64,000 bases of DNA from an uncultured Verrucomicrobiae bacterium. Its GTDB lineage: Bacteria > Verrucomicrobiota > Verrucomicrobiia > Chthoniobacterales > JAFAMB01. The stretch spans positions 608,001-672,000 of the forward strand of contig CAVXLD010000001.1 of assembly GCA_963762565.1 (NCBI GenBank), in the 5' to 3' direction. Shown here in pieces: positions 1-27,905 of this stretch. The translations under genes were made by a program, and so were the position numbers. The notes beneath the pieces were generated by a model. The model made no database searches. It saw only the letters and a program-made list of their open reading frames with translations, and was not told where the DNA came from. Position 1 is the first letter of the stretch. Each line of letters starts with the position of its first letter.

Positions 1-1389
1 TCGCGGTACATTATCCTGCAATAAAACAGCAAATCGACCAAGGGAAGGACCCAAGTGTGTCCCGGCCCCCAGAATATTGAACTCCTCCCGAATCAATCCA
101 GAACGTTGGACTCGACGCCAACCCTGCCCGCCGGCACGCCTTTAAGTCAGCCCTATTGGCTGCGCGAAGAAGGTACTGCAGGAATGTTCCGAGTTGATGA
201 TCCTTCATTGATCGGTCGCCCGGAGAATCCGCGCCCTTTCCCCATCGAATACGTTTTCGAAGTTGGCGGCCAGACACTGGTCATTCCGGACGAGCCAGTG
301 CAGATCACTACGAATTCCGAGAATAGTGAAGTTCACCGTCGCATGGAGGTGATTCCGCCGGTCTCGCTTGATTTTGCTTCTGACATTGCGCTGTTCGCTC
401 CGGGAACATCTCATCCGGTTGAAGTTGAAATCGTCGCGTCTCGCGCGGATTCGAACGGCACTTTGCGATTGGAAGCGCCTCAAGGCTGGAAGGTTTCACC
501 TGCCGAGCAATCATTCCATCTAAAGACCATCGGCGAACGGGCGCAGTTCACATTCACCATCACTGCCCCAGCGCAATCGGACACAGCCAAGATTATCGCC
601 GATGCGGAAATCGGGAAGGCGCATTACCAACCGGCCGCATCGAAATCAATTACCCACATATCCCGCCAATTTTGCTTCAGCCGCTGGCCAGTTTGAAAGC
701 CATCAGTCTCGAACTCGCAACTCGCGGTCACACGGTTGGCTATCTGCCGGGCGCAGGCGACAGCGTGGCTGAAAACCTGAAACAAATGGGTTATGCCGTC
801 AGGACGTTTGGACGATACGAATCTCACGCCGGAAGAATTGCACGGGCTCGATGCCGTGGTGATTGGCGTTCGCGCTTTCAATGTCCGCAACAATATTGGG
901 TCAGAATTGCCGGTGCTGTTTCGCTATGTCGAAAATGGCGGCACCATCGTTGCCCAATACAACCGGCCGGACGGGTTGAAAACGAACGAACTCGCGCCAT
1001 TTGAATTGCATCTGTCGGCCGATCGCGTCACAGACGAAACCGCGGCCGCCACATTTCTCGCCCCGGATAATCCGGTGTTGAACACACCGAACAAAATCAC
1101 CAGCGCGGATTTTGACGGTTGGGTGCAGGAGCGCGGAATTTATTTCCCGGACCAATGGGACGACCATTTCACGCCGATTCTCGCCTTCAATGATCCCGGC
1201 GAGTCGCCGCTCAAAGGCGGGCTCTTGGTCGCGCAATATGGCAAAGGTTATTTCGTTTATACCGGTCTGGTGTTTTTTCGGGAGCTTCCCGCCGGCGTGC
1301 CCGGAGCTTTCCGTTTATTTGCCAATCTGATTTCACTCGGCGTGGCCGACGAAGTGAAAGGCGGAGATGCGGCGAAGTCTGCCAAATGA
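1..1389 (+). CDS. LmbE/PIG-L family large deacetylase-like protein, C-terminal part (Ig-like/NEW3-type domain + class I GATase-like domain); 5' end outside window, two frameshifts
   Basis: ORFs 55-696, 672-1004 and 793-1389 join into one protein with SQPYWLR, VGYLPGAGDSV, DAVVIGVRAFN, FDGWVQERGIYF and FFRELPAGVPGAFRLFANL, typical of the long LmbE-like protein C-terminus; frame breaks near 635 and 805. Confidence 0.75.
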
Positions 1390-1527
1390 AACGTCCACAG
1401 TTGAACCTGAAAGTGACGAGACCGGCCTGCCGTGGTTGCGCACCTGGAAAGCGTCTATCTTTTGGTGATCATCCACTTCGTTCTTTGGATCGTTTTGCTG
1501 GTCGCCTTGACGGATTTCTTTTCATGA
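1386..1527 (+). CDS. small single-TM membrane peptide preceding the symporter (frameshifted in this assembly)
   Basis: Reading across two apparent indels gives ...ETGLPWLRTWKxVYLLVIIHFVLWIVLLVALTDFFS*; its stop overlaps the symporter ATG (ATGA at 1524-1527). Confidence 0.5.
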
Positions 1528-3237
1528 GCGCGCTGGATTTCGTTGTTCTCATCGGCTCGATGCTCGGCATCGCCGTCTATGGGATCTGGCGCACCCGAGG
1601 AAATCGCGGACTGAACACATACTTGAAGGGCGATAGCAAGACCGCGTGGTTCGCCATTGGTCTTTCGGTCATGGCCACTCAAGCCAGCGCCATCACTTTT
1701 CTATCGACCCCTGGGCAGGGATACCTGGGCGGACTTGGGTTTCGTGCAAATTTATTTCGGAATGCCGGTTGCCTTGATTATTATTGCCGCCGTTTTCCTG
1801 CCGATTTTTCGGCGGCTTAATGTTTATACCGCCTACGAATATCTTGGACGGCGTTTCGACACCAAAACCCGTCTGCTTGGGGCAGCTTTATTTCTTGTCC
1901 AACGCGGACTGGGCGCAGGGCTGACGATTTACGCGCCCTCGATTGTGCTCGCGACTGTCTTTGGCTGGCCGCTCGATTTGACGATTATCAGCAGCGGATT
2001 GGTCGTGATTATCTATACCGTGATGGGTGGGAGCAGCGCCGTCACCGTAACGCAAAAATATCAACTGGCCGTCATCTTCGCGGGCATGGTCACCGCATTT
2101 TGCCTGGTGGTGGCGAAGTTGCCCGCCGGGCTCTCCTTTACGGACACCTTTGCCCTGGCGGGTGGGTTTCAGAAACTCAACGCCGTGAATTTTTCAACCA
2201 ATGTTCATGAGCGCTATACATTTTGGTCGGGCTTGCTTGGTGGAACATTCCTGATGCTGGCGTATTTCGGCACTGATCAATCGCAGGTTCAGCGCTATCT
2301 TTCAGGCGCTTCTTTGCGCGAAGGCCGGCTTGGCCTCATGTTCAACGCCGTCTGCAAGATCCCGATGCAGTTCTTTATTCTGCTGCTCGGCGTGCTGATT
2401 TTTGTCTTTTATCAATTCGAACAACCGCCGTTGTTTTTCAATGCAGCCTTAAGCCATTATCTCGCGGAGCATCGCTCTGACGAACAGTTGCACGCTTATG
2501 AAACGGATTTCCATTCGCTCCACGATCAGGCAAACCAGCGGCTCAAAGAGTGGTTAAAAGCGAGACACGACGGCGACCGATCCGCAGCGGCTGCGGCATT
2601 CGCCGGCGCGCTGACCGCGCATCAACAGGGCGAGAAAATCCGCGAGGAGGCTGAGAAATCGTTGTCGCAGATAAGTTCCAGCACCACGGCGACCGACGCC
2701 GATTATGTGTTTATCACTTTTATCCTGCAACAATTGCCGCACGGTGTCATCGGTCTGCTGGTGGCGGCATTTTTCGCCGCTGCACTTTCCTCAAAGGCCG
2801 CCGAACTCAACGCGCTCGGTTCCAGCACCACCGTTGACTTTTATCGGCAAATCATCAAACGCGACGCAACGGATCAACACTGCTTGGTAGCCTCAAAATG
2901 GTTCACCGCATTTTGGGGACTGGTCGCAATTGCCTTCGCCCTCTACGCTCATCTGGTCGAGAATTTGATTCAGGCGGTGAACATTCTCGGCTCGATTTTT
3001 TACGGCGTGATGCTCGGTCTTTTTGTCGTGGCATTTTTCATACGGCACGTTGGCGGCACGGCCGTTTTTTGGTCGGCGCTGGTATCGCAGACACTCGTCT
3101 TTGTCCTCTACTTCACTCTCACCATTTCCTATCTCTGGTATCCGCTGATCGGCTGCGCCGCGTGCGTGATTTTAAGCATCATTCTGCAGAGCTTTTTTAA
3201 CGCCGTTGGAGAAACCGGTAAGAAAAGCAGGACATGA
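1524..3237 (+). CDS. sodium:solute symporter (SSS family), frameshift near 1740
   Basis: MSALDFVVL...GLSVMATQASAITFLSTPG in one frame continues as FVQIYFGMP...YTAYEYLGRRFD...YFGTDQSQVQRYL in ORF 1657-3237; many TM segments. Confidence 0.9.
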
Positions 3238-4004
3238 CGGCTCCAATCATTTGTTTTGGCCAGCAGCCGTGCGGGTTTTTCCCGAAGCGTTTTCTATTTG
3301 CAAAAATTCAAACTGCGCGCCGGCTGCAAAGTGAAATCGGTGGTGAGATCGTTTTCTTCTTTCACGACAGTGATCATGATCCGCGCGAAACCAGAACCAT
3401 CCTGCGCCACCGTAAAACCAATGAGCCGGCGCAACTTAACTTTGCTTTTAAGAATAACATTCAGCGCAGATTTTCACCGCTTTATCTCAAAGAAATTCCC
3501 GACGGTTGGCAGGATAAAACCGCGCGACAATTGCCAAATTATATCCGCCCTGATCTGACGGCGGTTTTTAGAAGAGTATCTGCCGCGAATGTCGCGGACT
3601 TCTGCCTGGAGATGTATCGATCTCTGGGCTTGCTCGATAATATTCGCGTCGTGCGTTCGAGTACCCCGGATTTTCGCCAGGCGGCTTGTAACATCCCGGA
3701 TTTTTTTGTGGACGTTCCACACGAAGATGAAATTGTCCGTGCCCGTTTTATCGACGGCGCTTTGAAACTGCACAAAGGCGGAGGCTCATTCTTGACCCTG
3801 CCGCTGACGGCATTCACCAAGCAGCAAATCAGTCCAACCCGCGATACCCGGTTGCGCTGGATGCAGTCTGTGGTGAATTGCAGCCATTACATTGCCGGCG
3901 CGGGCGAAAAGGATTATCTTTGTCCGGAGGAAACTCCGGAAATCAATTTTATCAATCGAGACCCCATTGACCGATCCGATGAAGCCTACACTGAACTCCC
4001 CTAA
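3234..4004 (+). CDS. compact BshC-like protein (putative bacillithiol cysteine-adding enzyme homologue)
   Basis: Motifs GQQP.GFF...K...ARRL, VFFFHDSDHD..E and HYIAGAGE..Y parallel BshC GQQ / VFW..EDHD..E / YVGGPGE..Y; lies directly upstream of bshB1-bshA; only 256 aa. Confidence 0.6.
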   Translation: MTAPIICFGQQPCGFFPKRFLFAKIQTARRLQSEIGGEIVFFFHDSDHDPRETRTILRHRKTNEPAQLNFAFKNNIQRRFSPLYLKEIPDGWQDKTARQLPNYIRPDLTAVFRRVSAANVADFCLEMYRSLGLLDNIRVVRSSTPDFRQAACNIPDFFVDVPHEDEIVRARFIDGALKLHKGGGSFLTLPLTAFTKQQISPTRDTRLRWMQSVVNCSHYIAGAGEKDYLCPEETPEINFINRDPIDRSDEAYTELP

Positions 4005-4714
4005 ACTTGCGCCATCACTGGCCTTTGGCGCGCACCCCGACGACATCGAATTTGGCTGTGGCGGTATCGCCGCCGCCGAAACGCAGGCCAGACGCCAGGT
4101 GCATTTTGTCGTTTGTTCGCGCGGCGAATCTGGAACGCATGGCACGCCGAGACAACGGATGGCTGAAGCAAAAAAATCCGCCGCCCTGCTCGGTGCGACG
4201 ATTGAATTCATCAAATTGGCCGGTGATGCGCACCTTGAAATTCGCGTTTCCTACACCATTCGATTGGCAGAAATCTTCCGGCGTATCCGTCCGGAAGTTG
4301 TGCTGGCGCCGAGCCCCGTCGAAAACCAGCATCCCGATCATGCCCGTCTGGGAAAATTAGTGCGGGATGCCGCGAGACTCGCCCGTTTCGGTGGTTTGCA
4401 GGAGTTGCGCGGTCAACCACCCCATGCCATCAAACAATTATTTTTTTATGCCATCACCCCAGAAGCTGAGCCGGCCAATATTACTCCGGTGCTGATTGAT
4501 GTTTCGGCGCCTGAAATTGTTGCTGCGTGGACCGCAGCCATGAAGGCGCATGCGTCGCAAATGCTCGACCCGCAATTACATCGATTTGCAACTCACCCGC
4601 GCCCGTTTGTTCGGTGCCCGCGCCGGAGTTGAGTATGCCATCGCTCTTTTTCCAAACGAGCCACTCGTCTTTGAGTCGCTAGCCCAGGCGGGACGAGGCG
4701 CGCGACGATTTTGA
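3979..4714 (+). CDS. bshB1: PIG-L family deacetylase, BshB1-like (GlcNAc-malate deacetylase); frameshift near 4565
   Basis: [21 protein letters not shown] metal motifs and HASQ; the C-terminus continues in another frame to ...ARRF* at 4714; adjacent to bshA. Confidence 0.75.
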
Positions 4715-4715
4715 T

Positions 4716-5853
4716 ATGGATTCAGCCGGCGGCCGATTGAGAATCGGCATCACTTGTTATCCCTCGGTTGGCGGGAGCGGCATTCTTGCCTCGGCGCTAG
4801 GAGAAGAACTGGCCGATCGAGGGCATGAGGTGCATTTCATCAGCTACGAACGTCCGTTTCGCATGCAGCGGAAAGTCTCCCCGGATCTTTTTTCATCCGG
4901 TAGTGATCAACGATTACGGATTGTTCAAGTATCCCGATTATACTTTGCCGCTGTCGGTGAAAATGGCCGAAGTCAGTCGGGACTATCACCTCGACATTCT
5001 GCATGTTCATTACGCTGTGCCCCATGCCACGGCAGCGATTCTTGCGCGGTCGATGTTGCCTCCTGAGCAACAGCCCCGCGTGGTGACCACCTTGCATGGC
5101 ACTGACACTACATTGCTCGGTCGCGATCCCGGTTATCGTCCGGCCATCCACCACGCATTGACTCACTCAGACGCGGTCACGGTCGTTTCGGAGTTTCTGA
5201 GACGGGAGACGCAGCGAGTGCTCAGTTTTGACGGACCGATGGAAGTCATCCACAATTTTTTTGAACCGCAAGCACCCCTGCGTTCGCGCGAAGAAGTGCG
5301 GCAGGAACTCGGGTTGCGCGAAGAAGTGCTGCTGTTTCATTCCTCTAATCTGCGGCCCCTGAAACGAATCGATTTGCTGCTTGAAACCGTCGCGCGCATC
5401 CGCCCGCGCGAGTCGTGGAAACTCGTCATTCTAGCGGGCGGAGATTTTTCACCATATCGCAGCGAGGTGCGCCGGCTAGGATTGGAAGACCGAGTGATCG
5501 TGCGGGAAAACGTCAGACAGATTGAAGATTACTTGCAAGCTGCCGACATCGGATTGTTCACCTCCGAAACGGAGAGTTTTTGTTTGAGCATTCTCGAAGC
5601 GATGTGTTTTGCCTGCCCAAGTATCGCGCCACAGGTGGGAGGAATTCCCGAAGTTGTTCAGGACAACATAACCGGACTGCTCGTCCCGTTCGGTGATACC
5701 GAAAAAATGGCGCTTGCCGCCGAGGATCTCATTCAGAATCCGGCGCGGCGCAAGACGCTTGGCCGTGCCGCTCAGTTACGTGCCCGGAAGGAGTTTTCCG
5801 CAAGCGTCATCGTGCCTCGTTACGAAGCACTGTACCATCGACTCTGTGGTTAA
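4716..5853 (+). CDS. bshA: N-acetyl-alpha-D-glucosaminyl L-malate synthase (GT4); frameshift near 4870
   Basis: [49 protein letters not shown] and [11 protein letters not shown] are BshA signature motifs. Confidence 0.9.
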
Positions 5854-5931
5854 TTACGTTTCTGTTGGCCGCGACTGCTAACTCGGATTGGCGCCCAAAA
5901 AGAGAAGTCACGTCTCATCTTGAGGCTTCCA

Positions 5932-6252
5932 CTACTCAACGACGTTCACCATCCCGGTCTGAATGTATGGCAGAGCTTGCAAAAGTTTAGGCATGAGCGG
6001 CCTGGTGTCGGCCAAGCGGTTGCTCGGTGCTCGCAGCACAATCACCTTTATTGGAGACGCGGCGAGATTCTGCTGGAAGGCGATGTTAGTGTCCATCGTC
6101 ACAAGAACCTCATAGCCGGATTCGCTAGCCTTTATAAGCAGTAGGCCATTCTGAACTCCGGCCCATCCTAGCCGCACAACCGACTCCACGTCATGCCCAA
6201 GCAATTCTCTGCCTAGCCGCCAATCCAGGTTTTCATCGAGTAAAATACGCAT
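5932..6252 (-). CDS. DUF5615/VapC45-like PIN-domain toxin
   Basis: MRILLDENL...LVTMD PIN-like motif; translationally coupled to the DUF433 gene. Confidence 0.85.
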   Translation of the reverse strand: MRILLDENLDWRLGRELLGHDVESVVRLGWAGVQNGLLLIKASESGYEVLVTMDTNIAFQQNLAASPIKVIVLRAPSNRLADTRPLMPKLLQALPYIQTGMVNVVE

Positions 6253-6461
6253 CAGTCATGCGCCAGCGCATGCACCTTCGCTTCCTCGAGCAAAACGAGA
6301 ACCTGTTCCCGCTTTACGCTCGGAAAACCTTCGAGAAAATCTTCGATCGAATCTCCGGCTTCTAGATGGTCAAAGAAGCTTCTAATCGGCACCCTAGTCC
6401 CTGCGAAGACCGGTTCGCCGCCGAGAATATTCGGGTCACGCAAAACGACTTTAGCCATCAA
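6252..6461 (-). CDS. DUF433 antitoxin
   Basis: DPNILGGEPVFAGTRVP...G.SIEDFLEGFPSV, the DUF433 consensus. Confidence 0.9.
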   Translation of the reverse strand: MMAKVVLRDPNILGGEPVFAGTRVPIRSFFDHLEAGDSIEDFLEGFPSVKREQVLVLLEEAKVHALAHD

Positions 6462-6571
6462 GAGAACTTAGTGCGGCGGTCGGTCTTTTTCGAGTCTTAA
6501 CTCTAGAACCTGATTTTTGTTTGTTCCAAAGCCGATTATTGGCTGCCCAGGGTCCCAAATTGAAACGTTAC

Positions 6572-7438
6572 TCAAGGTGCAGCGATATCGACGAACGCCT
6601 TAACGAGGTCTGGCACTGCAGATTTCGCTAAACTCAGAAACAGATATGGCTCGATCAGTTCCAGCTCCATCAGAGTGAACTTTCCGCCAACAGCTACACC
6701 GTCGACGCGGGCAAACAGAAGCGGTCCCTCAATCGCGTTTACGACATTTTGTGCAGCCTCAATATGATCTGGAGGCGGTATGGCTAAATCGAAACTTCCT
6801 CCATGCTCTATTTGGGTCCGGAATTCGCCTGATTTCGGCCGCTTCAATACCGCATGGCTATATTTCTTGTTAAAGAACAAGAGAGACCATTCCCCTTCGG
6901 TTTCAACCACGTCGAGATACTCCTGGATCAGGCCCCCCGACACACGAAATATTCGATCGATCTGCTCCTGGTCGAGGTGCTCGCCTCCGACCAGTACAGT
7001 GCGGTGGCCGGATGCTGAGACCCTCGGTTTCACTACGGCGCGCTGCCAACCTTGACTTCGCAGTACCTCTCTTAGGTCGATGCGGTCGCCCTTCTCGACC
7101 CAAACCGTGGGCGGTACCTTAAAACCGTTTTCGTGAAGTTCGCGTAGATAAATTTTATCGATGTTCCAGCGAATTAAGTTTGGACGGTTCCAGATTGAGA
7201 GTCCGAGCTCTTCGATTTTGGTGAGCCATTGCAGAAAGGCTTCATGCCGATGTTGATAATCCCAGCAGGATCGGATCACGATCGAACTAAACCTCGACCA
7301 ATCGACTGAGCCGTCGGACCAAACCGCCGCCTCGGCGGTGAGGCCAAGGCGGGCGAGCTCACGCAAAAGAAGTTGATCGTCAGGGCTCAGATCAGGCAGT
7401 CGTTCAAATGTGACAATCGCCAGGCGATTCCTCGTCAT
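6572..7438 (-). CDS. ATP-grasp ligase (RimK/glutathione-synthetase-like, DcsG-type)
   Basis: IRSCWDY, WNIDKIYL, VVKPRVS, GEWSLLFF, FARVD and LMELELIEP motifs. Confidence 0.8.
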   Translation of the reverse strand: MTRNRLAIVTFERLPDLSPDDQLLLRELARLGLTAEAAVWSDGSVDWSRFSSIVIRSCWDYQHRHEAFLQWLTKIEELGLSIWNRPNLIRWNIDKIYLRELHENGFKVPPTVWVEKGDRIDLREVLRSQGWQRAVVKPRVSASGHRTVLVGGEHLDQEQIDRIFRVSGGLIQEYLDVVETEGEWSLLFFNKKYSHAVLKRPKSGEFRTQIEHGGSFDLAIPPPDHIEAAQNVVNAIEGPLLFARVDGVAVGGKFTLMELELIEPYLFLSLAKSAVPDLVKAFVDIAAP

Positions 7439-7576: not shown

Positions 7577-7772
7577 AATCATTACTGTGGCTGTCTTAGT
7601 TGCCTTTGCGTGAGACGACTCTGGGGTCACCGCCGTCTCAAAATGAGAAAAGACGTCTCAACTTGGGAGGTGTTCGTAAGCCTCGAGATCGACCGAAATC
7701 GTTTTTGTTGCCAAGCATGCGCTCGAGTGGCGGGTAATTCTCCAGAGATAACTCAGAAAGGTGCCGCATCGG

Positions 7773-7789
7773 TTGGCAGACAACTTGCT
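7773..7789 (+). promoter_or_regulatory. putative sigma54 (-24/-12) promoter of the ADOP permease
   Basis: TTGGCAGACAACTTGCT has GG-N10-GC spacing, about 35 bp before the ATG at 7825. Confidence 0.65.
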
Positions 7790-7824
7790 CTGTGATTACC
7801 AGACCAGTTTGGGGTCTAGGCTCC

Positions 7825-10293
7825 ATGCGAACCTTGTTTCACGATCTCCGCTTTGCTTTTCGTCAGCTCAGAAGGACGCCGGGGTTTGCAGTGACCGCGG
7901 TGCTGACGCTGGCGCTCGGCATCGGCGCCAACACGGCAATTTTCAGCCTGGTGAACGCCGTCCTGTTCAAACCGCTTCCAGTAACGGATCCCCAACAAAT
8001 AACGACCCTGACCTTCCGCCAGAACCACGGAGCCTTGCAGCGTCCTTTCTCTCTGCCGGAATTCGAAGCGATCCGCGCCCAAAGCCAGACCTCGTTCAGC
8101 GACGTCATGGCAGTCACGGCCGGCATAGACGGGTTTGCCGTCGAAGGGCGGAAGCCGGAACGCATCACGACAGCCTATGTCAGCGGTAATTTCTTCGATG
8201 CGCTTGGAGTGCCGCCGGCGGCAGGTCGGCTTTTTCTGCGGAGCGAAGGCGAGGTTCTCGATAGCGACCCGGTGGTGGTTCTTGACTACAACTTCTGGAA
8301 GAAGCGATTCAACGGGGATCCAAATGTGGTTGGACGGCACGTCACGATAGATGGGCATCCCCTCTCGGTTATCGGGGTAGCGCCTGAGGGATTTCATGGC
8401 TTGCCCAGTGTAGCTCTTAGAGTCGCGGCGTATTTGCCGCTGTCCCAGTTGACCCTCGAGGGGACTCCCGCAGATGTTCTGAATAGCTGGCAGACTCGGA
8501 GCGTTCTTCTCTACGGACGGCTCCGGCCAGGATTCAGCCTGACCCAGGCGGACGCTGAGCTGAATGTCGTTGCTCGCAACCTGACGCGCGAACAACCGGA
8601 TGATGAGCCCCAGCTGGAGTTGGCCGCTTATCCCGAGCAAAGTCTTCGCATCGGAACCAACCCGAGCGCGATCGTCCTGATATCCGCGATATTCCTTGGC
8701 CTGGCCGGTATGATTCTACTGCTGGCCTGCGTGAACGTGGCTAACCTGGTGCTCGTGCGAGCGACTGTGCGTGAACGCGAGATGGCGATTCGCGCAGCGC
8801 TTGGCGCCAAGGGTTCCCGGCTCCTGCAACAGATGATCACAGAGAGCGTAACCTTAGCACTGATTGGCGGCGCGGTGGGCGTGGTTCTCGGTATGTGGGC
8901 CAGCACAGCGCTTGGTCACGTCAACCTGCATCTCGATGTTCCGTTTTCGCTATCGGTAGAATTCGATTGGCGAATCTTTCTTTACGCTCTGGGGATAGCG
9001 GTGCTGGCGGGGATTGTGGTCGGGATAGTGCCTGCCCTTCGAATGGCCAAGGCTAATGTGAATGCGGTTTTGCACACAGGCGGCCGCGGCACGACCGGAG
9101 GACGTCATTGGATGCGGGACACTCTGATTATCCTGCAGATTACCGGTTCTCTGGTAATGCTGGTCGTGGCCGGCCTTTTCGTACGCAGTCTGGGAGCTCT
9201 CCAGGCAACAGATTTCGGTTTTGAACCGGGTCACGTGCTCAATCTCTCCCTCGCTACCAATTTGATTGGGATCAACGATTCGCATACCCAAGATCTGACG
9301 GACAACATCCGGGCACGCCTCCACCAACTTCCTGAGGTAATCGCCGTAAGCCAGGCCACCGAGGTTCCCATGGGCTATTTCAATGGGAATACCGCGATGC
9401 TAACGATTGATGGCGTCCCGGCTCCCGAAGATGCTCCGGCATTAACCGCAGGGTACAATGTGGTTTCACCCGAATACTTCGAAGTGATGGGGATCAGTCT
9501 ACTGAGTGGGCGCAGCTTCACAGACGGAGACGATGCACGCAGCAGAGATGTAGCGGTGATCAGCAAGGGTATGGCCAAGAAGTACTGGCCGAATGAAGAT
9601 CCCATCGGCCATACCTTCCGCCTAGCGAGCGAGAAAGCGCGCGGGCTGGAAGTGGTAGGAATCGCACCCGACGTGGAAATTTCGTCTACCCGCGGCGACA
9701 AATCGCAGCCCTACTTTTACCTCCCGTATGCACAACACGTTAAAGGAAATGGGTTCCTTACCCTGCAGTTGAAAACGCGAGGGGACCCACTGGTGCTAGC
9801 GCCAACCGCCGAAAAAGCGATCCACGAGATTTCTCCCGAGCTTCCCCTGTTTCAAGTGCAAACCATGCATGAAGCGCTCTATTCAATGAATGGATTTTTG
9901 CCTTTTCAGTTGGGAGCTAGCCTGGCGGCAACCATGGGTGGTCTCGGCTTAACGCTTGCCGTGATTGGCCTTTATGGCCTGATCTCGTACGCGGTAAGCC
10001 AGCGAGTACAAGAGATCGGCGTACGTATGGCACTGGGCGCTACCCGGGGATCGGTGTTTGGCATGATCTACCGTCAATCGATGCGGATCGTGGCAGTTGG
10101 CCTTGGGATTGGTCTGGTGGTCGCACTGCTAGTTGCGCAAACCGTCAGCAGCTTAGTGATGGTCAGCCCATGGGACCCTGTGACATTCGCCACCGTAATC
10201 TCAGCCTTGATTTTTGCCGCTCTCGCTTCCTGCTATCTGCCGGCACGCCGCGCCATGACCGTCGAACCGATGGTCGCGCTCCGCCAGGACTGA
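7825..10293 (+). CDS. ADOP-family (duplicated MacB/FtsX-like) orphan ABC permease
   Basis: MRTLFHDLRFAFRQLRRTPGF...LALGIGANTAIFS, two MacB-PCD/FtsX halves, EIGVRMALGA, PMVALRQD; no ATPase gene adjacent. Confidence 0.92.
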   Translation: MRTLFHDLRFAFRQLRRTPGFAVTAVLTLALGIGANTAIFSLVNAVLFKPLPVTDPQQITTLTFRQNHGALQRPFSLPEFEAIRAQSQTSFSDVMAVTAGIDGFAVEGRKPERITTAYVSGNFFDALGVPPAAGRLFLRSEGEVLDSDPVVVLDYNFWKKRFNGDPNVVGRHVTIDGHPLSVIGVAPEGFHGLPSVALRVAAYLPLSQLTLEGTPADVLNSWQTRSVLLYGRLRPGFSLTQADAELNVVARNLTREQPDDEPQLELAAYPEQSLRIGTNPSAIVLISAIFLGLAGMILLLACVNVANLVLVRATVREREMAIRAALGAKGSRLLQQMITESVTLALIGGAVGVVLGMWASTALGHVNLHLDVPFSLSVEFDWRIFLYALGIAVLAGIVVGIVPALRMAKANVNAVLHTGGRGTTGGRHWMRDTLIILQITGSLVMLVVAGLFVRSLGALQATDFGFEPGHVLNLSLATNLIGINDSHTQDLTDNIRARLHQLPEVIAVSQATEVPMGYFNGNTAMLTIDGVPAPEDAPALTAGYNVVSPEYFEVMGISLLSGRSFTDGDDARSRDVAVISKGMAKKYWPNEDPIGHTFRLASEKARGLEVVGIAPDVEISSTRGDKSQPYFYLPYAQHVKGNGFLTLQLKTRGDPLVLAPTAEKAIHEISPELPLFQVQTMHEALYSMNGFLPFQLGASLAATMGGLGLTLAVIGLYGLISYAVSQRVQEIGVRMALGATRGSVFGMIYRQSMRIVAVGLGIGLVVALLVAQTVSSLVMVSPWDPVTFATVISALIFAALASCYLPARRAMTVEPMVALRQD

Positions 10294-15715: not shown

Positions 15716-18700
15716 TCACTCCTTGATGAAATCGAAGATGCCGGCTCGGGAACCTATCCGTTTGCCTGTGCCGCGATTGCCCTTGAATTGGGCGGCTATA
15801 TCATAACTATACGGCGTTCCCGGCCGTGCGTTGTTCATACTGTACTGCTGTGGCCCCGTGGTACCGGCGAGATGTAAGATAGCGTTCCCATCCGGTTTTA
15901 TTTCCCCCCTGATTTGGAAGTGGCTGTGAACGTTGTACTCCGCGTATAGAACTCCGTTCTTAATCGTAGCTGCAAAATTAATGTGATAGCCCTTCGCAAC
16001 CGCACCGGTAACAGGATCTTTGTAATCGGACGTTTCCATTGTGACTGACCACAGGCCATCGAAATTGCCGGTTGCCCGCTGCTCAGTTGGGGTTGCGACG
16101 GGGCGACTTGGAGTTGGCGCCACTAACGCTAGTTTCCGCGAAGGTGTTGGCGTCGCGACACGAGTGGAGTTGGCTGTGGGGGTGGCAACCACTAAGGGAC
16201 TCGGCGTGGAGATGGGGCTGGGAGCCGAAGTTGTGGTCGCAACCGAAGGAGTCGGCATCGCGACTACGAGTGGAGTGGTTGTCGGGGGTAGCGACAACCA
16301 CGGGACTCGGCGACGGTGCTGTCGGAGCAGGGGTCGGAGTGGCAAGCGCCACCGGCGGCGGAGCTTCGGGAGCGATCGGCGATGGTGTTGCCGTCAGAAC
16401 CAAAGGAGCCTGGGTTTCAGGTGTGGTCGGTCGAGGACCTAAAAAGCGAATCGCGCCGGCAATCCCGAGCGCCACAAGGAAGAGGGCCCCAACGATCGTC
16501 CAAATGAGCACCCTTCGTTTTGGACGGGGCGCAGCAACCGGCGCCGGAGAAAGCTGGACGGCAGACGGCTCCGCGGATGCTGATACCGAATTGGTGGTTG
16601 GTCGGGCCGGTGTAGCGATGCTGTCATTCAGCGCATTCCAGAACTCCTGGCAGGTGCGATACTTGCCGTCGCGGCCGACGCACGCGAGTCGCAGGATCTC
16701 ATTACTGGCCTGATCCAGGACAGGCAAAGGCGTATAGGTTTGCGCATCGATTCTCCGAGCCGGGGCCCGGCCCCCGAGCAGTTCGTACACCAGCCTACCA
16801 TAAAGACGCACTGCTTTGGTCCCCTGGATCCCCGCCTCTGCCTGCGTCATAGAAAGAACTCGGCTGGCAGGAACGATGGTCTGACGATCCCAGCCGTTCC
16901 GGCTCCGGAACAGCAACGGAGCTACACTCAAAGGGTTCAGTTTCAAATGGCATTTACTCAATCCTTCGGCGTCACCCTTGGCTACAGCCTCAAACCCCTC
17001 GCCTTCGACCGGGCAGACGACCAAGATTTTTCGAACACTGACATCCACCAGCCCCAGCCCTTGACCAGCAACGAAATCGAGGGTCTCGGCCAATGGGTTA
17101 AGTAGGGCTCGCAGCTCAACCGGCTTTAACGACTGCCGCCATCGGAGGAGGTCGTAGAGCCCAAAGCCATGGACCCATTCACGCACAATGCAGGGGCCCT
17201 GCGAGGAGCGCTCCAGCCGGTAATAACGAATTAGATGCGGGTGCGTGCCTTGTTGGATCACGCCCAGCTCGTTCTCCACCAAATCAAGCAGCGCCGGGTC
17301 GGCGGCGATGCCCGGATGCAACAGTTTAATGCCCACTTCCGAGGGTTGATTGCTTGTGTTCTGCTCATCCATCGCCCGAAAAAGGCGCCCTCCGTTTCCC
17401 TCCCGCTCCTCCGACATCAGCCGATACCGGTCAGCCAGCAGGGTTCCCGTCTGCACCGCCAGGTAATTATCAAACAACGGCGAAGCCAGGGGTGCTCGGG
17501 CAATTGGTTCCAGATCCTCTTTTTGTTTCTCGCCGGGCAAAGCCTCCTTCTCGGCTTCGCTAACCACGGATCGCGAGGACGCGATCCCTCCCGGGGTTAT
17601 GATCCGTTCAGGCACGGCTCCGAACTCGGCTGAAAGCCGAGTCGCCGCTGCCTCAATCGCCTCTTGCAGTTCCGCAGGCGTTTGGAACCGGTCATTCGGA
17701 CTCTTTTCCAGCATCCGGCGAAGCACTGAAATCACCGGTTCCGGTACCTGAGTCAATTGATCGAACGGCGGAGGTTTGATCATCTGTGCGACCATCACTT
17801 CTCCGACTGAGCCGGAGAAAGGCCGCTTCCCGCTGAGCAGATACCAAAGCGTTACCCCAAGAGAGTAGATATCAGATCGGACATCGAGTTTTTTCGCTTC
17901 GCATTGCTCCGGGCTGGCAAACGCTGGGCTACCGACGAAGTCCTGGGTTCGAGTGATTTTCGCGGCATCCAAGGTGTCCGCTCCTGCGCCTTTGGCGAGA
18001 CCGAAATCAATGAGTTTAACGTCCAGAGAGCCTGACCGGTTCGCGATCGCCATGATATTGGACGGTTTGATGTCTCGGTGAATCAGCTCATGGGCCTGGG
18101 CCGCTTCCAAGGCTTGAGCAACTTGCAACGCCACTCGGAGCGCGGTCGCCGGTGAGACGGGACCATGCCCGGCGATATAACGTTCCAGATCTTCACCCTC
18201 GACAAACTCCATGGCGTAGAAGTAGGCATCTTGCTCTTCCCCGAATTGAAAGATGGTCGCGACATGGGGGTGATGAATTAAGGCGGCGGCTTGGGCTTCT
18301 CGCAGAAACCGATGTTTGGCTTGCCGGCTTTGCAATAGCTCGCCTGCGATCACCTTCAGCGCGACCGGCCGATTCAGCACTGTGTCGATCGCCTTGTAGG
18401 TAACACCCATACCGCCCTTGCCCAGCCGGAACAGGGACCCATCCGGGTGGCGCAGGATCCGGAAATGCGCAAACGTTTCTGGAGTCGCCTCCTCTGCCTC
18501 CTCGTCTTCGGGTTGCCTTGAAGAGTCCTTTAGTAATGCGCGCGCATGTTGGAGCAGAGTCGGGAAATGTTGGGAAGGGGGCAGAGGCCGAAAGCCGTCG
18601 ACCCATTGGTCAGCTCCCAGAAAATAGGCTAGATCGTCCGCGGGTGCGATCGGTTCGACTCGGAACGTTAACAGATGGTTCTGGCAATGAGCCGCCCGTT

Positions 18701-18977
18701 CCACCTCTCGCAACACATGCTTGGAGCGATTGGATGCCTGGGTTAGGACGAGAAGCAAGATGCGAGCCTCGCGAATTGCCTGGGTGATTTGCCCGGAGTA
18801 AGGGCGACCACCTTGTACATCACGGGGCGCAATCCAACAACGGACATCGCCGGCTTCGAACGACGCGCAGATGGCATCAGCGATAACCTGGTTTTCGCTG
18901 GCATAAGAAATAAAAACCGTATGTGGCCATCTGCCTATGTTCGCTGGACGCGCCAACGGCGTATTCGCTTCGCTCAT
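15716..18977 (-). CDS. TIR + Ser/Thr kinase + degenerate kinase + TM + Pro/Thr linker + small extracytoplasmic domain; frameshift at G5 run 16284-16288
   Basis: N-terminal VFISYAS...CWIAPRD...REVE (TIR); GKGGMG, VALK, HRDIKPSN, DFG, SPE (kinase); second kinase-like region lacks HRD/DFG; TM VLIWTIVGALFLVALGIAGAI; ORF 15716-16345 continues the VVATPT repeats. Confidence 0.85.
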
Positions 18978-19123
18978 GAATCGAAGTCTTTGTTAATAGA
19001 CGACAGAACAGAACGCGCTTGCGTTGAAAGATGTTCAGCCTCTGGCTCATGAGGTTAGCGACTAGGCCCAAAAGATTCAATATCTTACACCACTCGATCC
19101 ACGGCTGTAACCGGGTGATAACG

Positions 19124-20102: not shown

Positions 20103-22529
20103 TTATTCGCGAAGCGCGATCACCGGGTTAATTCTGATGGCGCGTACGGTGGGAATTAGACAGGCTAAAACAGCGGCTAGCGTAAGCGCGGCGATAACGA
20201 ACGCGATGGTCGCCGGATCATAACTAGTTATCCCGTAGAGCAAGCCCGATAGGGATTGACCCAGAACCAGGGCTGACACGATTCCCAACGTTAAACCGAC
20301 AAAAACGATCTTCATCCCCTGCCAGAACACGATCTGGACAACATCGATGATTTGCGCTCCAACCGCGACCCGGATCCCGATCTCCCGTGTACGCAGGCTG
20401 ACTGAACGCGCTAGTATTGCATACACACCGACCAGCGAAAGAGTCAGAGCAAACATCGAGAATAAGGTCACCACTAGCAGGGTTACCTGACGAGTCTCGA
20501 ACGATTTGGAGATGAGATCATCCAGCGTACCTGAAGCAGACAACGGCACATCCGGGTCCAGCGATGCCACCGCCTTTTGAATCGCGGGCAGCAGCGAAAT
20601 AGCATTACCGGCGTTGCGAACGACTAAGGTGCAGTCATTTTGCTCCTGTCGATAAGGATGCGGTTGCCCCAGTGGAAAATAAGTCTGAAACAAGATGTAT
20701 TGCCGTGCCGGATTCAGCTGATAGACCGTCGGAACCACTCCTACGATGGTGTAATTCGTACGGGTCAGCCCGAGGGTTTCACCAAAATCATGGATCTGTT
20801 TCCCGATGGGGTTTTGTCCGGGGAAATAGGTGTTGGCCAACGTTTGGTTAACAATCACAACTTTATTCCGGCCCAGCTGATCCTGAGCATCAAATGCGCG
20901 CCCTTGTAATAGCGGGATTTGGAGTGCCCGAAAGTAATCGGGCGAAATAACCTCTAAAGTAAATCTCGGTTTATGGCCGCTGTCAGGCTCGGGCTGGCCG
21001 ACAACCGCAAACGGTCCCGCAAAGCCCTCGTTATCTTCCAGTGAGAAAGGTAACACATCGGCGGTACCGACCGCCGTCACCCCGGGTAGTTTAAGGACTT
21101 TTTCAATAATGACAGCGAAGAAGGTTTTCCAGTCCGCTAGGGTTCGGTATTTAGACTCCGGAAGATAGATGTCGGTTATTAATAAATTGTTAGGATTGAA
21201 TCCTAATGGAACCTGGCGCAGCGCTTGAAGACTTCGAGCCAACAAGATACAGCCAAACAGTAAAATCGATGCGATCGCCACTTGACACACAATCAGTACA
21301 AACTGGGTTCTTTGCCGCTGCGGGCTACGCGTGCCGCCGAATGTTCCTTTAGTTCGGAGCGCGGAAGTGAGATCAACCCTGGATTGGGCAAAGGCCGGAA
21401 ACGAGCCGGCCAGGAGCGAGACGAAAACGGTGGTTCCAAGTACCAGCACAAAGGCGAGGTTGTCGAACTCGAGCTCTTCAAACCGGGGAATACCGGACGG
21501 GGCAAGGATCCTTATCAAACTAACGCCCCAGTGCCCCAGAATGAAGCCGGCAGCTCCGCCGGCCAATGAAAGGACCATCGTCTCACCCATTAGTTGCAGA
21601 ACGAGACGGGTTTTGCTGGCTCCGAGAGACGCCCGGATCATCATTTCTTTCTGACGCTCCAGACTTCTCGCGAGATGTAGCCCGGCGACATTGGCGCAGG
21701 CAATCACTAAAAGCAGAGCAACCGACCCTCCAATCAGCCAAAGTGTAGAAGGAAAATCGCCCACCACACTGTCCAGCAAGGGAGCAACCCGGACCGTGAT
21801 GGTCTTATGGTTATCGGGAAACCGGGCAGCCAAGCTCTTGGCGGTGATTTCAAGATCCGCCTGCGCCTGTCGGAGAGTCACCCCCTCGGCCAACCTTCCG
21901 ATGCACCAGCAGCCATGGTTTGCGCGATCGGTTCGAAGCTCGTCCAGCTCCGGCAACAGGTTAAACGGCAGATAAACGCTCGCAATTTCGTCGGACCGTT
22001 GACGGCATACACCGATTATTTCGTAGCTAACTTGGTTAAGCTGCACCTTGGCGCCTACAACTGTGGGATCAGCCCGGAAACGTTCGCGCCAGAAACGTTC
22101 ACCCAGAATGACGACCGTTGCTGTGTCCGCCCGGTCTTCACCGGGCCCGAACGGCCGCCCCGCCAGCAAAGGTCTACCTAGTGTTTGGAAATAATTTGCG
22201 GTAACAAAGCTTCCAGTGAGATGCACTGGATCACCTTGGCCAGTGAGAACCAGATCATTATTGTAACTAACCGCTAAGTTTTGGAACGAATGTTGATTGG
22301 CACAAAAATCCAGGTAGTCCGGATAACACATCCGAAACGTCTGTAAATTCCGTAGCGGCTGAAAGACCTCCACTAGTTGATCCGCCCGCGGATAAGGCAA
22401 CGGCTTTAGTAAGACCGACTCAATCAAACTAAAGATTGCCGTGTTAGCGCCGATCCCGAGGGCGAGGATTGCTATCGCGGTGATGGTGAAGGCGGGGGAC
22501 TTGAGGAGGAGGCGGAGCGTGTGGCGCAT
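20103..22529 (-). CDS. ADOP orphan permease, array copy 5 (distal)
   Basis: MRHTLRLLLKSPAFT...GIGANTAIFS...EIGIRVAVGA...INPVIALRE; intact ORF. Confidence 0.92.
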   Translation of the reverse strand: MRHTLRLLLKSPAFTITAIAILALGIGANTAIFSLIESVLLKPLPYPRADQLVEVFQPLRNLQTFRMCYPDYLDFCANQHSFQNLAVSYNNDLVLTGQGDPVHLTGSFVTANYFQTLGRPLLAGRPFGPGEDRADTATVVILGERFWRERFRADPTVVGAKVQLNQVSYEIIGVCRQRSDEIASVYLPFNLLPELDELRTDRANHGCWCIGRLAEGVTLRQAQADLEITAKSLAARFPDNHKTITVRVAPLLDSVVGDFPSTLWLIGGSVALLLVIACANVAGLHLARSLERQKEMMIRASLGASKTRLVLQLMGETMVLSLAGGAAGFILGHWGVSLIRILAPSGIPRFEELEFDNLAFVLVLGTTVFVSLLAGSFPAFAQSRVDLTSALRTKGTFGGTRSPQRQRTQFVLIVCQVAIASILLFGCILLARSLQALRQVPLGFNPNNLLITDIYLPESKYRTLADWKTFFAVIIEKVLKLPGVTAVGTADVLPFSLEDNEGFAGPFAVVGQPEPDSGHKPRFTLEVISPDYFRALQIPLLQGRAFDAQDQLGRNKVVIVNQTLANTYFPGQNPIGKQIHDFGETLGLTRTNYTIVGVVPTVYQLNPARQYILFQTYFPLGQPHPYRQEQNDCTLVVRNAGNAISLLPAIQKAVASLDPDVPLSASGTLDDLISKSFETRQVTLLVVTLFSMFALTLSLVGVYAILARSVSLRTREIGIRVAVGAQIIDVVQIVFWQGMKIVFVGLTLGIVSALVLGQSLSGLLYGITSYDPATIAFVIAALTLAAVLACLIPTVRAIRINPVIALRE

Positions 22530-22736
22530 GGTGGTGAAAGGTGATTGGTGATCGGTGAGTCGTGATTGGTAGGGCGAGGCTCCCGACTCGAGTCTAGGAC
22601 GTCTTCGCAAGGCGTCATAGTGCTTTTCTTGAAATGATTAGTTGCGCCCAAGACTGCCGAGCCGGTTCCAACGCGTGCAATCTCCTAGCGTTATTTGTCA
22701 GTTGTCATTTGTCATGCGCTTCGCCTTGGCTATTGG

Positions 22737-25161
22737 TCATTCGCGTAGCGCCGTGATCGGGTTGACGCGCGCGGCTCGAAGCGCGGGGATAAGGCATGCC
22801 ACTATGCCGGACAGGCCTAAAACCAGGATCGTTACGCCGAGCGTCATCGGATCAAGTGGACTGACTCCGTAAAGTAGGTTTGCGATGGCACGTGCAAAAC
22901 CTGCTGCACCAACTATACCAATTATCATGCCAAGGCCGATGAGCTTGACGCCGCGGAGAACCACCCAGTTTAAATGTTCATCTGATCAGCGCCCAGCGCC
23001 ATGCGGACACCGATCTCTTTCGTTTGCCGAGCAACATAACCGGCTAGAAGGGCATAAATGCCGACTACCGATAGCGATAAGGCCACAGCGGAAAAGCTGC
23101 CGGCAACCGTTAACTCCATCTTCCGGGTTACGAATTTACCTGCCAGCGTTTGGTCGAATGTCGTTAGCTGACCAATAGGGACATCTGGGTCGACCAAAGC
23201 CATTGCTTTTTTAAGCTGAGGTAGCAGGCGACTGGGATCGGCCTTAGAGCGCAAAAGCAGTTGTTCGGCGTACGCCGGGTCCTGCGTGTACGGGTAGTAT
23301 TCCTGAAATGGGGTATCACTATAGTCAGCCGTGTTCTGTCGCACGTGCGGTACAACTCCGACGATGGTAAAGATTGTGACCCCTCTCCCATCCGCTGTAG
23401 GAGAGCTAATTTGCTTTCCCAACGGGTCCATACCGGGGAAATAGCGATCAACCAGAGCCTGATCGACGATGATCACTTTCTGGCGATCCGACTTATCGTT
23501 CGCGTTGAAGTCCCGTCCTCGTAAGATCGGTATACCCATGGTCTGGAAATAACCCGGCGAAATCCGATAGGTATTGAATTTAGCGGTATGGGCGGGATCT
23601 GGTTCTGTTTGTCCGGTGACCCAGAACGGCGAAGACCAGCCATTACTACTTAAGAACGGAGGTCTGTCGTTCAACGCTGCGTCAGTGATCTCAGGAATTT
23701 GCCGCGTCTCCTCCAGCAGTCTGTCGAAGAAAAGGCGCATCCGACCTAGATCTGCGGTATAGTTGCGGTTGGTTAGTATAATCGGGACTGAGATAAGCCG
23801 GTTTAGATCGAACCCCGTGGGAGTATTCGCAACTGCTTGAAAACTGGAGATGAGCAGCCCTACTCCAAAGAGCAGGACAAATGCTAGCGCAACTTGGGCG
23901 ACCACCAACCAGGAATGCATTTGTTGCTGCGGCTTAGAAGCTCCACCACTATGGCCCTTTGGCAGCGATGCCAGGTTGATGCTAGACAGGTTCCACGCCG
24001 GCAATAATCCCGCCAGCACCGCAACCAAAACCGTGAGGCCAAGTACAAAGAGGAGCGCCGTCACGACCTAGATGAGCCTCTTGAAAACGATACAGATCTT
24101 GCGGACTTAAGCTTTTTATTACGCTCAAGGCCCACGAGCCTAGAACCATTCCGAAGAGCGCGCCGGCCGTTGTGAGAACGGTCGTTTCTATGAGCACCTC
24201 ACTAATAAGCCGGCGACGAGATGCGCCGACCGAAGCTTTGATGACCATCTCGCGTCGCCGCTCAAGTGATCTAGTAAACAGGAGGCAGCCCACGTTTACG
24301 CTCGATATCGCAAGCAGACCGACCGCAGCTGCAGCGAGCAGCCAAATAGTCGAATGATAGTCACTCCGTCATTGCATCCAACAACGGAACAATCCGAAGT
24401 ACGTATCCCTGCTCCGTTACAGGGTATCGACTGGCCACTTGCGAGTAGATACGACCCAAGTCTGCCTCTGCTTGAGCCGCATTGATTCCGTCTTTTAACC
24501 TACCAAAACAATCTATCCAGTGGGAGCTTCGATCCCACAGGTTAAGATTCAAAGTAGTTACTAAATTGTTAATGGGCGCATAGGCATCGATTGGAGGAGG
24601 TCCCCAATCATCGACTTGAGATTGCGAAACGCCGATGATCCGAAAGCTCTGACCGCTAAGCACGATACTTTTGCCAATAACGCCGGGATCCGAGTTAAAA
24701 CGCTTTCGCCAAAATTGTTCGCTCAGCACAATCAATAACGGACCGTTCGGAATATCCTCTTCTTCCGTGAACGATCTCCCAAGAATCAAAGGACGGCCCG
24801 TGACGCGAAATATTCCGGGTGACGCAAAGTCCACGTTGACGCGCGTGGAATAATCCCCTTCGCGCCAATCAAGCCAGTCGCCTCCATCACTAACGCACAA
24901 AGTATCGAAACTCCGTTGATCAGCAGCGAGGTCAATAAAATCAGGATAGTCGAAATTCGTTCGGCCACTGTTGGGAGCCCGCAGCACCACTTTGACCAAT
25001 CGATTCGGGTCGGGATATGGCAAAGGCTTGAGCAGAACTCCATCGATCAGACTGAAAACCGCGGTATTAGCGCCAATACCGAAGGCCAGGATTACGATCG
25101 CGGTGATGGTGAACGCTGGGGACTTAAGTAGGATGCGGAGCGTGTGGCGAAGCCCGAGCAT
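22737..25161 (-). CDS. ADOP orphan permease, array copy 4 (frameshifts near 24365, 24065, 22970)
   Basis: ORFs 24361-25161, 23982-24293, 22970-24064 and 22737-22964 are consecutive parts of one ADOP protein ending VNPITALRE. Confidence 0.85.
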
Positions 25162-25211
25162 GGTGAAAGGTGAGAAGTGAAAGGTGAAAGGTGAAGGAGC
25201 TAGGAGCTACC

Positions 25212-25397
25212 CGTGGAGCGCGCCTCGCTTGCGAGGCCGTGGTAAGCAGGGCTGAAGATTGGTCAGGGGCATCGTCGAGCTGCGCTCTGGGGTATGAAAA
25301 GGCAGACGTTCGTAACATAGAGTGATGAGCGTAATAAGGTGATGCGTTACTAGGTCCTTTGTTCACCACGGCCTCGCAAGCGAGGCAGCGCTCCACG
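25212..25397. mobile_element. REPIN/MITE-like element (~186 bp), copy A
   Basis: Terminal inverted GTGGAGCG(CT)GCCTCGCTTGCGAGGCCGTGGT arms; near-identical to 27906-28089. Confidence 0.8.
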
Positions 25398-25410
25398 TTT
25401 GCGCTATTGG

Positions 25411-27867
25411 TCATTCGCGAAGCGCAGTGATCGGGTTAATGCGCACGGCTCGTAGTGCAGGCAACAGGCAGGCCAAGACTGTGGCTATTCCAAGAACGAA
25501 CACCGCCAGGGAAAGCGCCAGGGGATCACTAGCGGAGACATTATAAAGGGCGCTCTCGAAGAATCGGACCAGGAGCAAAGCGGACATTAGTCCGATCGCT
25601 AACCCGAGTCCCGCTAACTTCAGGCCTCTCAGGATCACGAGCCTTAGGATATTGGACGATTGAGCTCCAAGAGCGATACGAACCCCTAGCTCACGTCTCC
25701 GTTGGCTGACAGAATAGGCGAGTACACCGTACAGACCCACTGCAGAGAGGCAGAGCGCAGCGCCGGAGATAATGCTGACTAAGAAAGCGCTGAATCGCCT
25801 GGTGGCTGACCGTCCAGCAATCAAGTCATCGAATTTTTGGATTCGATCCGCCGGAACATCCGGATCGATGGAAGCCACAATCTTTTGAATAGCGGGAGCC
25901 AGGGTGGCCGGCTCTCGATCGGTACGTAAAAGCAGGAATGCACGATACAGATTGTCACGTTGGCTATACGGGAAATAAGCTTGATAGGGTGCCAAGCTGT
26001 GATCAGGGGCATTGTGTCTGACTTGTCCGACCACACCAACAATCGTCCACGTCTTCTGGTCGTCACGCGTCGCCCAGAGATCTTCTATTTGCTTTCCGAT
26101 CGGATCTCCGCCTGGGAAAAACCGTTGTGCTAGAGCTACATCAACGATGACAACATGTTGGGTGTCTGCCCGATCGTCGGCGTCAAAATCGCGCCCGGCA
26201 ACGATCGGAATCTGCATGGTTTTGAAATAGTCCGGAGAAATATCTTGGGAGCAGAGACGTTGGCTCTTTACCGGGCTCCGTAACTGGCTGACCTGGAATG
26301 TGAAACGGTGCGTTCAAGTCACCGAACGTCCATTCAAAGGGTTGTTCTTGATTCATGGCGGCATCAGTCACTCCCGGAAGTTCCTTCGCCTTCTCGAGAA
26401 CGGCAGCAAACAGACGCCGGATTTGAGGCATATCGTTATATTTCTTACCGGTAGGATTGATGTTCGCGCTAACGAGATGATCCGGCGTTGAATCCAAGGG
26501 GGATTTCCTGGAAAACCTGGAAGCTACGGACTAACAACCCGGCTCCGATCAATAGTACACAAGCGGCCGCTACTTGACCGGTCACCAGGATAGATTGAGT
26601 GCGTTGCCGGTGCAGCCCGGTGGTGCCACCCCGATTACCTTCTTCTCGGAGGACCGTTTCCAAATTGATCTTCGAAAGACTGAGTCCAGGAAGTAATCCC
26701 GGACAACAAGGTGACAAAGGCGGTGATTAAGAAAATGAAAATTAGAGATGCGCTATCTAAATGGACGTCTTGAAATCGGTTCAGGTAATCCGGGCTTAAC
26801 CACTTAATCAATCCAATCGACCAAAACGCAATAATACAGCCGGTGACACCGCCTAACATCGAAAGGAATGCGGTCTCCAATAACAGTTTTCTAACCAGAC
26901 GAAAACGCGAGGCGCCTAAGGTCGAACGAATTGTCATTTCTTTGCGGCGTTCCAATCCGCGAGCAAAAATCAAGTTCGCCACATTGGCGCAAGAAATGAG
27001 CAAGAGGCATCCAACAGCCCCTCCTAGTAACCAGACCGTCGCTGAATAAGTGGCGGCTGTGCTGTCAAAGAGTGAAGCCACCCGAATAATGTAGTTCTTG
27101 TCGGCGTCAGGATACCGGGCATCGAGGTTGCTTTGAATGATGTTCAAGTCGGCGTTGGTCTGTGCCGGAGTTGCAGCCTGCTGCAAGCGTCCGAAACAGA
27201 GCAGACCGTGCGACGCCCGTTTGTTCGTCCATGGACCTCCAAAGTACTCCGATACATGGATTGGCACATACACAGCGTCGTCCGAAGGAGTGCTGACATC
27301 TTCGACCTGTCTTGGGCAAACCCCAACTACCTGGAAGCTTTCCCCGCTTAGAATGATGTTTTGACCGATGACATTTGCATCGGCATTAAAGTGATCCCGC
27401 CAGAGCGCCTCGCTGAGCACAGCGACCATGGGGCCGCCGGTTTTATCTTCGGCCTCAGTAAATGGGCGGCCTAATACGAACGGCAAATTCGTGACCTTGA
27501 ACAGGCTGGGCGACGCATAGATCGCGGTCAGCCGTTGCGGAAGCTGACGAGTCCCCAAATCTAGATAATCCCAGTACTCCACCGCGATGTTACTCAAGGT
27601 CTTCTGATCATCGCGAAGATCCAGATAATCCGGGTAACTTACCCCACCCCAATCCGACCGGTCCAACACAGAGTTGCTTGTTCTCGATTCAAAGATCTGC
27701 ATCAGCCGATCCGCTTGAGGAAACGGTAATGGATTTAGCAACACGGTACTAATCAGGCTGAAAACGGCGGTGTTCGTCCCGATACCGAAGCCGAGGATTA
27801 GTACCGCGGTGATGGTGAAGCCGGGCGACTTTAGCAGGAGGCGGAGGGTGTGGCGCAGGGGGGACAC
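25411..27867 (-). CDS. ADOP orphan permease, array copy 3 (frameshifts near 26700, 26490, 26240)
   Basis: ORFs 26635-27867, 26469-26717, 26183-26497 and 25411-26217 join into one ADOP protein ending INPITALRE. Confidence 0.85.
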
Positions 27868-27905
27868 GGGGTGATTAGTGATTAGTGATTGGTGATCGGT
27901 GATCG

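Follow-up and report, generated by a model that had tools for sequence, protein, structure and literature searches.

The mycothiol cysteine ligase MshC is a class I enzyme resembling cysteinyl-tRNA synthetase (CysRS). BshC (YllA; PDB 4WBD; TIGR03998, PF10079 plus PF24850) accounts for the single step in bacillithiol synthesis whose chemistry is unexplained; its crystal structure holds citrate in the canonical site and adenosine diphosphate in a second pocket, as described in the available parts of two reports (PMC5790435, PMC4360819). Verrucomicrobia are listed, in the available part of a further source, as a lineage without a documented or predicted low-molecular-weight thiol (PMC6282198), and a 2025 survey, as far as its accessible text goes, demanded hits of a length similar to that of the full-length BshC query (PMC12719100). 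Here we report that an uncultured Verrucomicrobiae bacterium (Chthoniobacterales; assembly GCA_963762565.1) encodes, within a 64,000-nucleotide stretch of contig CAVXLD010000001.1 (positions 608,001 to 672,000 of the forward strand; hereafter the window, to which all coordinates refer), a 256-residue protein that by profile comparison and structural modelling is homologous to the BshC core and a member of the BshC superfamily. On the basis of sequence and model, we consider it likely that this compact protein takes the place of BshC and attaches cysteine to GlcN-malate, so that bacillithiol or a thiol very close to it results. Its gene lies in the following cassette:

1524..3237, + strand: sodium:solute symporter (SSS/SLC5; Pfam PF00474, TIGR00813), first gene of a conserved four-gene cassette

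3234..4004, + strand: compact BshC-like protein ('mini-BshC') of 256 amino acids, a single Rossmann-like core, recognised from the listed open reading frame (ORF), the model and sequence profiles

3979..4714, + strand: BshB1-like PIG-L deacetylase (PF02585; TIGR04001 at 125.8 bits, cut-off 182.5)

4716..5853, + strand: BshA, N-acetylglucosaminyl L-malate synthase of glycosyltransferase family 4 (GT4; TIGR03999)

Reading the sequence directly, the start codon of the compact gene (ATG, 3234-3236) shares the tetranucleotide ATGA (3234-3237) with the upstream symporter stop (TGA, 3235-3237), and its own stop (TAA, 4002-4004) lies 26 nucleotides into bshB, assuming that bshB starts at the ATG at 3979. 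The translation contains G9-Q10-Q11, D47-H48-D49-P-R-E52 and Y219-I-A-G222-A-G224-E225-K-D-Y228. The initial annotation, made from the letters alone, had noted a 256-residue frame overlapping both neighbours, its GQQ, DHD..E and Y..G.GE..Y motifs and its position ahead of bshB1 and bshA; coordinates, residues and gene order all hold, the PIG-L deacetylase having BshB1 as its best NCBIfam match at a score below the cut-off. A scan of positions 1-6600 for promoters and terminators returned no more sites than did shuffled sequence.

The ORF at 3234-4004 is a real gene. A word-indexed search of metagenome proteins with the 256-residue sequence returned 6911 homologues at E<=0.001, and among the 120 matches listed the length is 254-257 residues and the identity 78-100%; when representatives clustered at 50% identity were searched exhaustively with HMMER, 239 clusters matched, some of their full-length members being as little as 33% identical. 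Third codon positions account for 23 of the 34 listed differences from near relatives inside the ORF (312 further rows of that comparison lie outside this count), and the relatives' contigs from four soil metagenome runs have no insertion or deletion (indel) within 3234-4004. Because homologues of near-constant length are so numerous and the third-position bias is present, the frame is more than a chance opening. The closest homologues have source names (Chthoniobacterales, Verrucomicrobia) that agree with the earlier description of the host as a probable verrucomicrobium.

The predicted structure and the conserved residues both point to BshC. An AlphaFold2 model built from a 12-sequence alignment (mean predicted local distance difference test score, pLDDT, 94.7; predicted template-modelling score, pTM, 0.91) contains the Rossmann-like core fold of 4WBD. 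Foldseek against the PDB placed B. subtilis BshC (4WBD) first (E 2.9e-9; template-modelling score, TM, 0.62 on the query), and VIA-align paired 238 of the 256 residues with residues 82-520 of the BshC chain (Z 20.3, root-mean-square deviation 2.5). Both methods find the similarity to the BshC Rossmann core on which the initial annotation had made its proposal depend. When 24 compact members were compared by hhalign with 30 canonical BshC sequences (26-67% identical to the query that gathered them), the two profiles matched over 217 columns with a probability of 89.5% (E 2e-6), compact residues 5-230 pairing with BshC residues 87-363. Among the 48 BshC positions conserved at >=90% in these 30 sequences, 32 are aligned to the compact family and 17 of the 32 share their consensus residue with it (G9, Q10, Q11, K24, F41, D47, H48, D49, E52, G132, F157, S200, R206, Q211, G222, E225, Y228). 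The core motifs GQQ, Lys, DHD..E, S..R...Q and G.GE..Y are thereby common to both proteins. In a protein-language-model search, PF10079 BshC clusters (score 0.91, 15 hits) came next in rank behind those of the family itself.

Whereas canonical BshC has ~500-590 residues, the compact protein has 256. It is without the N-terminal ~85 residues, the coiled-coil dimerisation domain (PF24850) and the conserved C-terminal QER and H residues, has ~50 fewer residues inside the core, and ends 26 residues beyond the last position paired by hhalign (residue 230, just past G.GE..Y). It also falls below both curated hidden Markov models of BshC (TIGR03998, cut-off 265.8 bits; PF10079, cut-off 27 bits), and it is accompanied by a symporter and a divergent BshB1-like deacetylase. 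Because it fails the curated models and lacks two defining parts, we set it outside TIGR03998 as a BshC variant. The idea of a split gene, with the rest of BshC encoded elsewhere, was rejected: in the organism's own genome (6.1 Mb, 93.7% complete, 15 contigs) there was no BshC fragment and no PF24850 domain (best 12.8 bits), nor a canonical BshC (best 11.7 bits, at another locus). Longer relatives of the compact protein number only 14, all of them single-member clusters fused to a neighbouring gene and none of canonical BshC length. Four are fusions to the deacetylase, three with obvious frame-shifted stretches; the fourth, P0391 (a metagenome protein of 495 residues on a 2.4-kb contig, also a single-member cluster), appears to join the compact protein cleanly, in frame, to the BshB-like deacetylase.

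The other described systems lie further away. Class I lysyl-tRNA synthetase (LysRS; PDB 1IRX) is the second-best structural match (VIA-align Z 14.6 over 206 aligned residues; Foldseek E 4.7e-4); the compact protein differs from it in having neither the anticodon-binding part nor the aminoacyl-tRNA synthetase signature motifs, and in its thiol-synthesis operon context. All remaining class I synthetases gave VIA-align Z <= 9.9. MshC offers an analogous step, in which cysteine is added to a deacetylated amino sugar supplied by a GT4 enzyme and a PIG-L deacetylase, and a nucleotide-binding fold of the class I synthetase type; the chain of cysteine tRNA ligase reaches Z 9.1 against the compact model, a far weaker match than that to BshC. 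Neither the HIGH nor the KMSKS motif occurs in the 256-residue translation when read directly, and a simple formation of cysteinyl adenylate, as in MshC, is therefore not implied.

The compact protein replaces canonical BshC genome by genome, in the same operon slot. In a sample of 301 Verrucomicrobiota genomes, canonical BshC was found in 2, the compact protein in 20 and BshA above its cut-off in 22; these 22 are exactly the 2 canonical and the 20 compact carriers, and none of them carries the two forms together. The genes are arranged as bshC-bshB-bshA in the canonical pair (G070, G247) and as compact-bshB-bshA in the 20 others, with BshA within ~2.5 kb of the compact gene in 20/20 carriers. 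The BshB1 model was unspecific at E 1e-20, matching 110 of the 301 genomes.

The same arrangement is found well beyond this sample. A scan of one genome per species returned at least 586 genomes with compact relatives. The best 80 of these loci (67-83% identity) are labelled, in the records, as Verrucomicrobiota (59), as Melainabacteria, Obscuribacterales or other cyanobacteria (12), and otherwise (9). Where at least 2200 nucleotides were available downstream, bshB and/or bshA followed the compact gene on the same strand in 66/66 genome loci (bshB in 64, bshA in 65) and in 35/38 of the metagenome loci (80 fetched, members ~40-70% identical to the window protein); a PIG-L deacetylase still adjoins the compact gene in the 3 exceptions. 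The linkage of homologues to bshA and bshB, which had been named at the outset as a point on which the proposal could fail, came out in its favour. The symporter gene immediately precedes the compact gene in 71 of 73 loci from genomes and in 34 of 46 from metagenomes (L024-L183). At four loci (L073, L089, L119, L134) bshA comes after the compact gene and tblastn gives no match to the deacetylase between them; L110 and L173 look the same, with a downstream sequence too short for the count.

In a quick IQ-TREE phylogeny with midpoint rooting, the 12 cyanobacteria-labelled sequences form one group (Shimodaira-Hasegawa-like approximate likelihood ratio test, SH-aLRT, 96) nested among verrucomicrobial ones, which suggests, at the level of sequence, lateral transfer of the cassette to these lineages. 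The 12 metagenome-assembled genomes with these labels (L033, L042, L057, L058, L073, L083, L085, L086, L088, L093, L094, L101) have the whole cassette. The nine sequences with other labels are scattered in the tree, and their genomes may be mislabelled bins.

Based on these observations, we infer the substrate, product and chemistry of the compact enzyme by analogy with the canonical pathway. Canonical bacillithiol production depends on BshC, and a bshC mutant builds up GlcN-malate. BshA would make GlcNAc-malate, the BshB1-like deacetylase would free the amine to give GlcN-malate, and the compact enzyme would join cysteine to this product, with translation of the cassette genes coupled through their overlapping stops and starts; in a protein consisting of the core alone, any cysteine donor or partner would bind the core. 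The first of these assignments is consistent with the glycosyltransferase scores: all 23 downstream GT4 genes sampled exceed the BshA equivalog cut-off (345-424 bits), and in the window, where the gene is split, TIGR03999 matches an N-terminal piece at 66.8 bits (profile 2-46) and a C-terminal piece at 322.5 bits (profile 41-373), the latter above the cut-off of 273.7. BshB1 is the best match for 17 of 19 partner deacetylases, below its cut-off. The own genome has neither gshB nor an E. coli-type gshA (other gshA types were not searched), and the searches thus gave no sign of a further known thiol pathway. The initial annotation had suggested a minimal, catalytic-core BshC, and the fold, the profile match and the linkage speak for that description, catalysis itself being predicted from model and sequence.

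A bacillithiol-type thiol is accordingly a prediction for Verrucomicrobiota and some Obscuribacterales, and the compact family, which is widespread in soil and water Verrucomicrobiota, would fill a pathway hole; at least 586 species-level genomes carry it, and its metagenome members number in the thousands. Surveys that require full-length hits cannot detect these organisms; our literature search, among the papers listed, found nothing on a short BshC or on bacillithiol in these taxa, and the supplementary dataset of PMC12719100 might list some. A natural half-size form would provide a simpler model for cysteine addition and an easier target for enzymology and crystallography, and it narrows the possibly essential set to one Rossmann-like core and ~17 shared conserved positions. 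A bolder proposal, which we put forward tentatively and consider possible but somewhat doubtful, is that the 256 residues suffice on their own as a minimal cysteine ligase and that the cassette is a mobile module supplying a bacillithiol-type redox buffer to Verrucomicrobiota and, through transfer, to Obscuribacterales. If so, the N-terminal segment, the coiled coil and the C-terminal QER and H residues would be dispensable for catalysis, a reaction that has so far defied reconstitution could be worked out on a small and probably coiled-coil-free enzyme, and these lineages would possess a redox buffer not predicted for them by anyone before.

Several results weigh against assigning the BshC step to the compact protein, and we collect them here. 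Pfam and NCBIfam gave no match to it even at E<=10. The initial annotation had foreseen that the gene would be annotated as hypothetical, and all source-named proteins among the 120 listed homologues are indeed so called. Searches of PDB sequences with phmmer or with the 12-sequence profile found nothing relevant, and BLASTP and hhalign against one single canonical BshC were not significant; direct sequence searches failed, and only profile-profile and structure comparison made the kinship visible. Sixteen BshC positions conserved at >=90% are unpaired, including the invariant R53, R382, Q507-E508-R509 and H539 (P0385 numbering); most of them fall within the N-terminal ~85 residues or beyond BshC residue 363, and unpaired here refers to the profile alignment, not to a residue-level structural superposition. 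The partner deacetylases score 108-164 bits, under the BshB1 cut-off of 182.5 (the deacetylase beside a canonical BshC reaches 207 bits), so the pathway may differ in detail. In the own genome YtxJ and BrxA/B are absent, and YpdA has no match above cut-off. The BshC reaction itself, according to the available parts of PMC5790435 and PMC4360819, has never been reconstituted, and no activated form or donor of cysteine has been identified. Finally, the symporter, bshB and bshA are each frameshifted in this assembly.

These frameshifts, of which those in bshB and bshA were missed by the initial annotation, raise the separate question of whether the operon is decaying at this locus, with the pathway dead here and the intact compact ORF a remnant. 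The symporter is split at ~1726-1742, where the match to a 569-residue relative (L026) shifts from frame 3 (1524-1742) to frame 1 (1726-3234). The single ORFs of six relatives match bshB at 3979-4563 in frame 1 and then 4559-4711 in frame 2 (split at ~4565), and cover bshA in frame 3 over 4737-4865, continuing in frame 1 from 4858 (split at ~4870). The contigs of all four soil metagenome runs, which come from relatives 88-99% alike whose identity with this strain is not established, are without one base at 4565-4567 and without one base at 4870-4872, and the sequencing runs match only small shares of the window (<=0.16 each). An extra base in each of bshB and bshA relative to these contigs, together with the split symporter and a bshB site that is not a homopolymer, would fit genuine decay. 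Against it, the bshA site falls within a short run of A and G, no indel occurs in the compact ORF, and two MacB-type permease genes at 22973-27984 are also broken, into at least six pieces. Because these genes elsewhere are fragmented as well, we favour an indel-prone assembly over selective decay; the frameshifts are likelier general indel errors of the 15-contig assembly, and we regard true decay as rather unlikely.

The cassette could also have the same fold and operon but a different product, if another amino acid or thiol acid were coupled, or if an imported carboxylate replaced malate, to yield a variant thiol. The divergent BshB1-like deacetylases under the equivalog cut-off and the missing BshC-invariant residues leave room for this, as does the conserved symporter, whose nearest solved relatives are SMCT1 (1e-36), SMVT, NIS and SiaT, SLC5 carriers of carboxylates and anions; that it supplies an acid substrate is a guess. 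In some divergent metagenome loci, moreover, a GNAT acetyltransferase lies directly upstream. This neighbour recalls MshD of the mycothiol pathway and, by analogy, hints at acetylated variants; one adjacent deacetylase scores nearer to BshB2, MshB and Mca than to BshB1 (genes concerned: L104:4407-4949, L146:4439-5002, L148:5783-6550). The partner glycosyltransferases nevertheless all pass as GlcNAc-malate synthases, and the alignable conserved BshC positions are largely kept (17/32), so that we judge a different product to be distinctly unlikely, and retain bacillithiol or a very close relative as the expected one.

Two further genes lie downstream of bshA on the opposite strand:

5932-6252, - strand: DUF5615 protein, beside the ATP-grasp gene

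6572-7438, - strand: ATP-grasp protein, best NCBIfam match DcsG (D-cycloserine synthetase) at 145.8 bits, far under the cut-off

The ATP-grasp protein has a weak glutathione-synthetase likeness, and neither gene is kept beside the cassette in relatives. Considered as the real ligase, the ATP-grasp protein was rejected as a conserved partner, there being no tblastn match to it in any of 160 related loci. An accessory or unrelated role for the compact protein, as a non-catalytic partner of BshB and BshA, a regulator or a relic resembling the synthetases, with cysteine ligated by another enzyme, might be entertained because in vitro activity of BshC has never been demonstrated (in the accessible parts of the two reports cited above), about half of BshC is missing and a ligase-like gene stands nearby, but we hold it to be highly improbable given the mutual exclusion with canonical BshC across the 22 genomes that have BshA, the want of any tblastn match to that ATP-grasp gene in the 160 related loci, the coincidence of its conserved positions with those common to the BshC core, and the lack of any other BshC or coiled-coil domain in the own genome.

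Elsewhere, the window encodes two proteins with TIR domains and four intact paralogues of ~830-850 residues:

16086-18992, - strand: protein of 969 residues with TIR and Ser/Thr protein kinase domains

40318-42000, + strand: protein with TIR and Tll0287-like domains

7738-10290, 20106-22637, 28106-30610 and 30907-33387: the four paralogues, each with MacB-like periplasmic core and FtsX permease domains

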